DNA from: Ginglymostoma cirratum
Lineage: Eukaryota
Assembly: GCA_024137785.1 (NCBI GenBank)
Contig: JAHRHZ010000145.1
Span: forward strand, 22,163,957-22,227,956
Reading direction: 5' to 3'
DNA length: 64,000 bases
Under the pieces are notes generated by a model. That model was given only the letters and a program-made list of their open reading frames with translations. It did no database searches and was not told the origin of the DNA. Positions 60,301-62,823 of the stretch are shown here, piece after piece (the first letter of the stretch is position 1; each line of letters begins with the position of its first letter). Both the position numbers and the translations under genes were made by a program.

Positions 60301-61308
60301 TTATTCAAGGCACTTTTCCTAAATGAGAACATGATTATATTTGAATCATCCATATCAACAACTGTTCAATGCAGACACACTCGCTGTTTTTGTGTGCAAA
60401 TTTTAATTATTCACAGGAATTTAAAATTATGTTGGCAGGCTTATGATTATTAATTAATTCAAAGACTGGGGAGCAAAAATATTTTAGCTTTTTAAACTGA
60501 GAATCATTAAACCAACAAAATGATCACTGTGATCCATATGTTTTAAATGATTCCTGAGAATGCTTCCGTTGATTTTTCTTTATATTTTGGAGATAGCAAA
60601 ATTAACTTTCAGAATCAACACTAAGGCCTGACTTGTTGCTAATGCACCAGCAATGGGATCTGCAGTAGAATCCTTAAATAACTGCTCTATCTCCAAGTTC
60701 AATAAAAGGAATGTTCACAATTCATAAATTGAACATGTAGGAATATTTAGTATAAAGTGATTTTAAATATTTAAACTTGGATGATTTTTCCATTGATTTA
60801 CATTAAATTGTTTAAGTTTAAAGGTGAGATTTAACAGTAAAAATGAGGACGACAGGATGGTCCTTTAACATTCAAAGTTATAAGACCAGTTTCTTCCTGT
60901 GATACAAACAAAAGGGGAGCTTTAACATCTGCTAGCACCAGAAGTTACAACTGGATTTATAGAAAGTTTAATTATGACTTGTGAGTCATGGTTTGGAACT
61001 GTGTTTCTGTGGTAGAGCCAAATAATGACTTTTTTTTAATTACTTGGTATGAACAGAATGTCCATGAGATTGCACCTGTACTCAAATATAATATGCTCTG
61101 TTATACATGTGGCACTCACACATGTACAATGATTCCCTTGTCTATTTCCTTACAGAATTCTTAAAATAACCTAATAATATTTATTGTACCATGTGTCAAT
61201 TTGGGGAAGGAATGCAGGTTTATCTTCTTTCGAACAAACGTATACATTTTCTGATGGGAAAGTTAATTTCTTTCCTAACACTTAAAGTGAATGCTTCACA
61301 CAAGTAGA

Positions 61309-62047
61309 GAGATAATAGGTACTGCAGATGCTGGAGAATCCGAGATAACAAGGTGTGGAGCTGGATGAACGCAGCAGGCCAAGCAGCATCATAGGAGCAG
61401 GAAAGCTTGACGTTTCGGGCCTAGACCCTTCATCAGAAATGGGGGNNNNNNNNNNNNNNNNNNNNNNNNNNNNNNNNNNNNNNNNNNNNNNNNNNNNNNN
61501 NNNNNNNNNNNNNNNNNNNNNNNNNNNNNNNNNNNNNNNNNNNNNNNNNNNNNNNNNNNNNNNNNNNNNNNNNNNNNNNNNNNNNNNNNNNNNNNNNNNN
61601 NNNNNNNNNNNNNNNNNNNNNNNNNNNNNNNNNNNNNNNNNNNNNNNNNNNNNNNNNNNNNNNNNNNNNNNNNNNNNNNNNNNNNNNNNNNNNNNNNNNN
61701 NNNNNNNNNNNNNNNNNNNNNNNNNNNNNNNNNNNNNNNNNNNNNNNNNNNNNNNNNNNNNNNNNNNNNNNNNNNNNNNNNNNNNNNNNNNNNNNNNNNN
61801 NNNNNNNNNNNNNNNNNNNNNNNNNNNNNNNNNNNNNNNNNNNNNCATCCCCGCTTCTTTGACTTGTCTGCCTCCTCTCCACCTATCCTCTCCTCTATCC
61901 ATCTTCTATCCGCCTCCCCCTCTCCCCCTATTTATTTCAGAACCCTCTTCCCCTCCCCCATTTCTGATGAAGGGTCTAGGCCCGAAACGTCAAGCTTTCC
62001 TGCTCCTATGATGCTGCTTGGCCTGCTGCGTTCATCCAGCTTCACAC
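61309..62047 (-). mobile_element. Young PLE insertion with inverted hammerhead-bearing ends; interior is an assembly gap
   Basis: The left end (-) and right end (+) match as inverted copies over about 90 bp. Cores at 61436-61409 (-) and 61964-61991 (+). 16-bp direct repeat GCTTCACACAAGTAGA at 61293-61308 and 62039-62054. Confidence 0.88.
61446..61845. other. Assembly gap (400 N)
   Basis: Run of N. Confidence 1.
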
Positions 62048-62823
62048 AAGTAGATCTGATTTCAGTCACCATGTTCCTAGTTGACCATTGGGTTTGTGAA
62101 GTTGGAAGGCATAATGTAGACACTCCATTCACTCCTCAGATCCTCCTTCACAGAATTAGTGACCTGAATCAATAGGTAAAGGTCATCTGCTGATCTCTGA
62201 ACATGTGTCTAGGACAAAATGAACTGGAGAAGTCTTAAGGGTGCCAGAAATTTTTTTTTAAACAACACAATCGCCGAAATGATTTGAATCTTCACTGGAA
62301 TTTTGACATTTTCTATCAGATTTTAAATCATTCATTGCTGTAGAGCATTCCTAATTAGCATTTCTAAAATGGCCTGTCAGTGTTGCTAAAAATGAATAAT
62401 GTCAATAAGGTGACTTTATGTTAAAGGGACCATCTTCATCGAAACGATGCTTGATAAGTGTTACTGGCTGTTTGATGAACATAATGTGAGGGTATAATTT
62501 TCAAAAGGTAATGCTGCACCCCAAAACTTTTCATGAATGGTCTGAGTATTAAATCATTACAACTTCAATGATTTAATTTCTTGGTTTAATGCCCTTTCAA
62601 GGCTTTTCACGCACCTCCCCCTCCCAAAACTATAATTAAAACCTTCTGTAGTGCCTACTTAAAACTCTTTTCTCAATAAATTCAATTTCAACAATAAAAG
62701 GCCGACATTCTTTTGTTTTAATCCGAGTCAAGAAAATAAAGTACTAAGTTTTTTTCAAGTCTTAAATTGGCAGAAGTTGCATAAATGTCAATTATGAATG
62801 CAAAAGAAAGGTACTCAAGTAAA

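Follow-up and report, generated by a model that had tools for sequence, protein, structure and literature searches.

In the excerpted text of earlier accounts of Penelope-like elements, inverted element ends (pLTRs), a tail on one side only and trouble with assembly are described (PMC3846280, PMC8557442), and the tail is put at 30–40 bp (PMC8557442, PMC11167929). Pairs of minimal hammerheads on opposite strands, 100–700 bp apart, are reported in the available part of PMC4209133, in which metazoan minimal hammerheads showed no cleavage as monomers and low cleavage as dimers. The hammerhead of an anole element, as excerpted from PMC11167929, needed the element's own protein for cleavage. Among titles and abstract openings, a set that takes in few subscription papers, we found none on the locus described here or on editing of shark inverted repeats.

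We analysed a 64,000-nt stretch of Ginglymostoma cirratum DNA (the window), in which an insertion of this kind lies at 61293–62054. The best explanation, to which we assign a probability of roughly 0.8, is a young insertion of an endonuclease-bearing (EN+) Penelope-like element, with two head-to-head ends enclosed by a 16-bp duplication, likely within the SPATS2L 3′ UTR, where a stem holding an inactive hammerhead is predicted. The two arms (61353–61445 and 61955–62047) are 99% complementary over 93 nt, point outwards and are bracketed by a 16-nt direct repeat (61293–61308 and 62039–62054), so that the inverted arms, hammerhead motifs and direct repeat recorded in the preliminary description are all confirmed. 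The single mismatch over the 93 nt is a base within the right 16-nt repeat. The parts of the insertion are as follows.

61293–61308: left copy of the target-site duplication, 16 bp; present in a single copy in the empty-site contig of organism B (run X15)
61309–61445, minus strand: left pLTR arm with the long (tailed) end, 137 nt, sense on the SPATS2L strand
61309–61341, minus strand: 33-nt Penelope tail, from the short end (about 104) to the long end (137) in the end histogram
61409–61436, minus strand: minimal type I hammerhead core in sense orientation relative to SPATS2L, with cleavage predicted after 61409
61446–61845: run of 400 N, unread, likely a fixed-size assembly gap; also present in the genome copy
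61846–62038, plus strand: right arm, comprising 109 nt of the C-rich region downstream of the element ORF and then a shortened pLTR
61931–61936, minus (SPATS2L) strand: element-borne AATAAA, followed by purine-rich sequence; weak as a poly(A) candidate
61964–61991, plus strand: second minimal hammerhead core, antisense on the SPATS2L strand
62039–62054: right copy of the target-site duplication

The arms are unequal. The left arm carries the family's 33-nt tail and ends at arm position 137, the commonest end in the family (32 of 93), whereas the right arm stops at arm position 84–93, short of the usual short end at about 104. The first 109 nt of the right arm correspond to the spacer that follows the GIY-YIG ORF stop in another copy (L041), and the arm is 95–97% identical over 202 nt to several other copies. 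At the right junction, the first nine nucleotides of the repeat match the element at 8 of 9 positions, bearing out the junction microhomology noted earlier; this 9-nt overlap of arm and duplication compares with a maximum of 7 nt among 24 short ends sampled elsewhere. The fetched loci contain 16 runs of exactly 400 N, and 8 of the 23 other inverted insertions considered below hold such a run; the run here is therefore likely a fixed-size placeholder gap where the palindrome defeated assembly.

The 16-bp repeat is a true target-site duplication of a young insertion, since a close relative (organism B) retains the empty site with one copy of the 16-mer. In a 774-nt DNA contig of organism B (run X15), which is about 97% alike in the flanks, 61220–61308 is followed directly by sequence from 62055 onwards. 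Both arms share a minority base found in 8 of 157 copies (5%) and differ only inside the duplication; random family copies differ at 6.7% of sites. The sequences of the arms fit an origin from one source in one recent event, though assembly near the gap may have homogenised the arms and inflated their identity. Organism B also appears to carry a separate insertion of the same family at window positions 61125–61139, about 170 nt from the focal site, seen in one run (X16): beyond 61139 one contig departs from the window sequence into the short end of the family, and in a second contig unrelated sequence meets the window at 61125, so that a duplication of about 15 bp is implied. Run X15 breaks at 61126 without showing this insertion.

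Judged by its sequence, the element is the pLTR of an EN+ Penelope-like family, as had been proposed. ORFs adjoining this pLTR match RVT_1 (L074) and GIY-YIG (L041 and L022) above Pfam cut-offs, a CX4CxxC linker occurs in L041, L070, L022 and L082, and in L041 this pLTR's hammerhead lies 275 nt beyond the ORF stop. The hammerhead-bearing pLTR, the one-sided tail in an inverted pLTR and a duplication proven by the empty site complete the features expected of such elements. The focal copy itself has no ORF in its readable part. In the available text of PMC8557442, a CX2-5CxxC linker upstream of GIY-YIG marks the Neptune and Nematis clades; of these we tentatively prefer Neptune, because a preprint (10.64898/2026.07.22.740005), in the part available, reports only Neptune and Poseidon in its vertebrates.

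The exact 32-nt core has 12,264 matches (6,113 + 6,151) in the 4.36-Gb genome, with none for a reversed control, and 23 arms of at least 60 nt and at least 85% identity lie within 148.5 kb of contiguous DNA around the locus. Together with the 6.7% site difference among random copies, these counts uphold the earlier view of a young, high-copy family. The near-identical copies that had been placed at 1–118 and 42087–42215 were both recovered:

1–118, plus strand: another tailed copy of the same pLTR, 96.6% identical over 1–116, whose 5′ part adjoins a 5,000-N run outside the window
42087–42216, minus strand: solo pLTR copy from the same family, tailed and with its core intact, 93.1% identical

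Older, diverged Penelope ends of other subfamilies are found among window positions 10745–10833, 21295–21464, 26880–27197 and 63707–63737; those at 21295–21464 form an inverted pair, and a GIY-YIG fragment is among the same older remnants. The C-rich upstream region is missing from 46 of 109 cores (L010–L100 and window 42216), and most such cores, where readable, begin at the 5′ strand of stem I, 3–5 nt ahead of CUGAUGA. An initiator-like CCATTTC overlaps this stem I start of the short copies, which may be a 5′ boundary that recurs or the point where a short pLTR RNA starts. Beside family copies lie intronless ORFs of about 300 amino acids that resemble seven-transmembrane receptors by eye (L048:2702–3661, minus strand; L073:4122–5000, plus strand).

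The insertion lies downstream of a SPATS2-family gene whose PF07139 exons occur further upstream on the same minus strand.

62824–63231, minus strand: last coding exon, an ORF with a splice acceptor at 63232–63233, where a contig match stops at 63232
58305–62823, minus strand: probable SPATS2L 3′ UTR of about 4.5 kb containing the insertion, from contigs of run X1 and a scan for poly(A) signals
58326–58331, minus strand: best poly(A) signal candidate, AATAAA with an upstream UGUA and a GU/U-rich downstream region, score 26

The last exon gave no usable match in the protein atlas. We take the gene to be SPATS2L rather than SPATS2 from its position beside KCTD18, whose domains lie at 33605–50170, on the assumption that the human synteny applies. 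The distance from the end of the last-exon ORF, at 62824 on the minus strand, to 62054 is 770 nt, in agreement with the 0.8 kb first estimated. KCTD18 (33605–50170) and SPATS2L (62824–63231) are on the same strand here and convergent in human, which suggests a local inversion in one lineage.

No run listed as matching the locus is recorded as RNA. Evidence for transcription on both sides of the site comes chiefly from run X1, which we take as RNA solely from one contig that stops at a splice site; its contigs carry no strand. That 1,624-nt contig covers 62039–63232, ceases to match at the splice acceptor, beyond which it has 409 more letters, and continues for 21 letters past 62039, where the first 31-mer with unique sequence begins. 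We read it as a spliced transcript entering the element, since a 31-mer assembly would break on entering the repeat. A second X1 contig, of 2,562 nt, covers 59600–61100 and runs a further 1,061 letters leftwards, to about 58540 if colinear. Depth is 19.1 for the distal contig and 15.6 for the proximal one, and a small run from organism B (X16) covers most of 59600–61205. Reads were compared with the flanks and with 22 nt of the left end, and the differences in the X1 flanks resemble scattered SNPs. A short repeat at 63276–63335, within the last SPATS2L intron, attracts many contigs in X1 and X15.

Between 56500 and the stop, the minus strand holds 13 AATAAA/ATTAAA hexamers. The signal at 58326 scores highest of the 106 AATAAA on both strands of the window (26, next 21), and the element-borne AATAAA at 61931 has the lowest downstream GU/U score of all 106 hexamers (3), on which ground we rejected it as the main 3′ end. 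The spliced contig that reaches the element, the contig on its far side and a best poly(A) signal about 3 kb beyond make it likely that the UTR spans the element, as the preliminary description had supposed. A 4.5-kb 3′ UTR containing the element is the simplest reading and one that we hold to be highly probable. The location also has a precedent: in the available portion of the retrozyme preprint (10.64898/2026.07.22.740005), exonic copies in Xenopus are rare and mostly in 3′ UTRs.

It is unlikely, though it deserves some weight, that SPATS2L mRNA instead ends mostly upstream, for example at the ATTAAA at 62717–62722, or at the element-borne AATAAA, leaving the element inert downstream. The downstream score of the ATTAAA at 62717 is a fair 18, and no read or contig bridges the element, with a hole in X1 at 61101–61302; the distal X1 contig could also come from another transcript, such as a plus-strand one from the KCTD18 promoter region. 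Yet all three proximal ATTAAA sites lie within the stretch that the spliced X1 contig crosses before reaching the element, X1 has similar depth on the far side, which run X16 covers as well, and the element-borne signal is the lowest-scoring and the distal one the highest. The poly(A) raw-read run X20 contributed only 7 + 12 reads, of mixed orientation when the two stretches are pooled and too few to judge strand, transcript ends or editing, and no reads matched in run X21.

If the 3′ UTR extends across the element, as we favour, the transcript would carry the antisense arm first and the sense core second. The core CUGAUGA-A-stem II-GAAA-CGUC has three matches in the window (61409–61436 on the minus strand, 61964–61991 on the plus strand, and 42186–42213) and none in 100 shuffles. 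No Rfam family reached its gathering score anywhere in the window, and at 61250–62100 none of the hammerhead models matched with E up to 10. The motif has the make-up of a minimal type I hammerhead, with the conserved core, an extra base after A9, the G10.1–C11.1 pair and palindromic positions 15.2 and 16.2. Stem I comprises three weak pairs, with no extension found, where the definition in the available text of PMC4209133 asks for 4–5 bp. Among 121 cores (103 of them identical), a sample seeded on one variant, there are 15 stem-loop II variants, mostly loop changes, with no compensatory pair.

These features resemble the minimal hammerheads of metazoan Penelope pLTRs, for which the excerpted PMC4209133 gives the same CUGANGA, extra base before stem II, G10.1–C11.1 and GAAA, together with the palindromic C15.2/G16.2 lacking loop 3 and UC at the cut site. 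Compared with the schistosome consensus in the same source, however, stem II is 3–4 bp here rather than 7–8 and stem I has three weak pairs rather than 4–5. A further difference from the minimal hammerheads excerpted there (PMC4209133) is that stem-loop II here is self-complementary over 12 nt. This stretch, at 61972–61983, includes two G-U pairs and reaches −22.6 kcal/mol as a duplex; by modelling, its self-pairing could join two cores or trap them in an inactive dimer.

Folding was run on the two arms without the interior, and ignores proteins and editing. The arm duplex reaches −198 kcal/mol, with all 15 core bases paired at a probability of at least 0.997. The double-hammerhead fold scored −3.5, the best dimer −33.8 and the monomer −9.3 kcal/mol, so that the active double hammerhead is predicted to be about 30 kcal/mol less stable than the inactive dimer. 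A dimer in cis was rejected, because the two cores lie on opposite strands and only one is sense in any transcript. The double-stranded stem in the SPATS2L 3′ UTR, raised in the preliminary description, is thus likely by prediction, but the working ribozyme that it also envisaged in the mRNA is not supported: the modelled hammerhead would be kept inactive by pairing to the antisense arm. UTR read-through across the element, the stem and the inactivity of the ribozyme are all predictions.

We consider it very unlikely that the sense hammerhead usefully cuts SPATS2L mRNA, in trans with element RNA or with the help of element protein, and so lowers or reshapes expression. The core is intact and thousands of copies could supply partner RNAs; protein-assisted cleavage is described for the anole element (PMC11167929, in excerpt), and for Clec2d the available part of PMC2950038 describes reporter expression lowered by an active hammerhead in the 3′ UTR. 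Against these precedents, the same RNA carries a perfect antisense arm ahead of the core (−198 kcal/mol), stem I offers only three weak pairs with no extension, and, as weak evidence, the contigs to either side of the site have similar depth. A regulatory 3′ UTR ribozyme of the Clec2 type was rejected on the empty orthologous site in organism B.

The inverted layout recurs across the genome. We sampled 85 loci from the first matches listed on contigs C1 and C2, a non-random set from which five overlapping loci (L014, L029, L030, L031 and L037) had been dropped. In this set, 27 of the 93 exact cores sit in 23 inverted insertions with target-site duplications of 10–17 bp, a duplication test passed by 3 of 300 random position pairs; because the flank was limited to 1.5 kb at 25 of the 85 loci, the count of long inserts is too low. 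All but one of the 23 pair one long end with one short end, and 14 are gap-free, spanning 160–2,227 nt. Element ends cluster at arm positions 100–107 and 133–137, which defines the 33-nt tail. Extrapolating 23/93 to the 12,264 cores gives roughly 3,000 such insertions genome-wide, and the focal locus is accordingly not special: it is one of thousands of young inverted insertions with a published layout. A non-LTR retrozyme was rejected on the two readable cores, which lie head-to-head on opposite strands with no head-to-tail tandem units outside the 400-N interior. That one real arm was duplicated around an assembly gap, as the 400 N between the arms and their identity outside the duplication might suggest, is very improbable and is rejected on the unique junction of each arm and the empty site with its single copy of the flanking duplication, in line with the long/short difference between the arm ends, which follows the family's pattern, and with the 14 of 23 comparable insertions that are gap-free.

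How a genuine insertion would acquire this form can be outlined from work on the anole Penelope protein, which in the available text of PMC11167929 nicks and extends both strands in vitro, with reverse transcription starting at two sites that bracket the tail. At the SPATS2L locus, the endonuclease would nick both strands 16 bp apart and each nick would prime reverse transcription on element RNA. One copy would start at the tailed end and the other about 11–20 nt before the usual short end, the latter start helped by the 8/9 match of target and RNA, and the two copies would be joined in the unread middle. Priming from both nicks, by way of the anole protein's two start sites, would account for the pairing of one long with one short end. 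Counting against the two-nick view, self-priming is favoured for the inverted junction in the excerpted PMC3846280. We infer the two-nick mechanism by analogy with in vitro work on a Poseidon-clade element.

On its own, the locus matters little, as one copy of a published insertion type. Its value lies in the empty site of a close relative, from which the target sequence, the 16-bp nick spacing and the priming microhomology can be read exactly, and which bears on how Penelope elements make inverted copies. Since the insertion is likely in an expressed 3′ UTR, the two species also offer a natural with-and-without pair for the editing and mRNA fate of a hairpin in sharks. The element would have landed in an existing SPATS2L 3′ UTR, where its arms could pair into a stem of at least 93 bp and the hammerheads would be passengers that serve the life cycle of the element. 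Effects on SPATS2L, if any, would then act through double-stranded RNA, as with inverted Alu pairs, by way of editing, retention or decay, and are most likely small and unselected.

A larger claim, which we regard as doubtful, is that Penelope insertions inverted in a single step play in sharks the part of inverted Alu pairs. Ready-made hairpins, present by the thousand and probably by the dozen within 3′ UTRs, would provide double-stranded RNA for editing and mRNA control, and the SPATS2L UTR, hit twice about 170 nt apart in two related species, would be a target both recurrent and affected in function; at its boldest, the claim has the antisense arm gating a protein-assisted hammerhead. Stems formed by inverted Alu copies measure about 300 bp.

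The insertion is closest to Pen2 and Pen2a of Adineta vaga (PMC3846280; more generally PMC8557442), whose accounts, in the parts available, share the head-to-head pLTRs, the 30–40-nt tail at one end, the duplication, the microhomology and the central assembly gaps. Unlike in Pen2/Pen2a, the duplication is 16 bp (10–17 bp in the family) rather than 8–10 bp, and the short arm ends 11–20 nt before the usual short end with 8/9 microhomology; the interior here is unread. The Clec2d 3′ UTR hammerhead of rodents, as excerpted from PMC2950038, likewise places a core in an mRNA 3′ UTR. It is, however, active and conserved across mammals, whereas the focal core is of the minimal type, has no counterpart in a relative about 97% alike and is predicted to pair with its own antisense copy. 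With the inverted Alu pairs of 3′ UTRs (PMC11263572 and others, in the available text), the locus has in common near-identical inverted retroelement copies in one 3′ UTR and a long double-stranded RNA by prediction. It differs from the pairs excerpted from PMC11263572 in that one insertion event, not two, supplied both copies, and in its readable stem of about 93 bp, which here is a predicted one.
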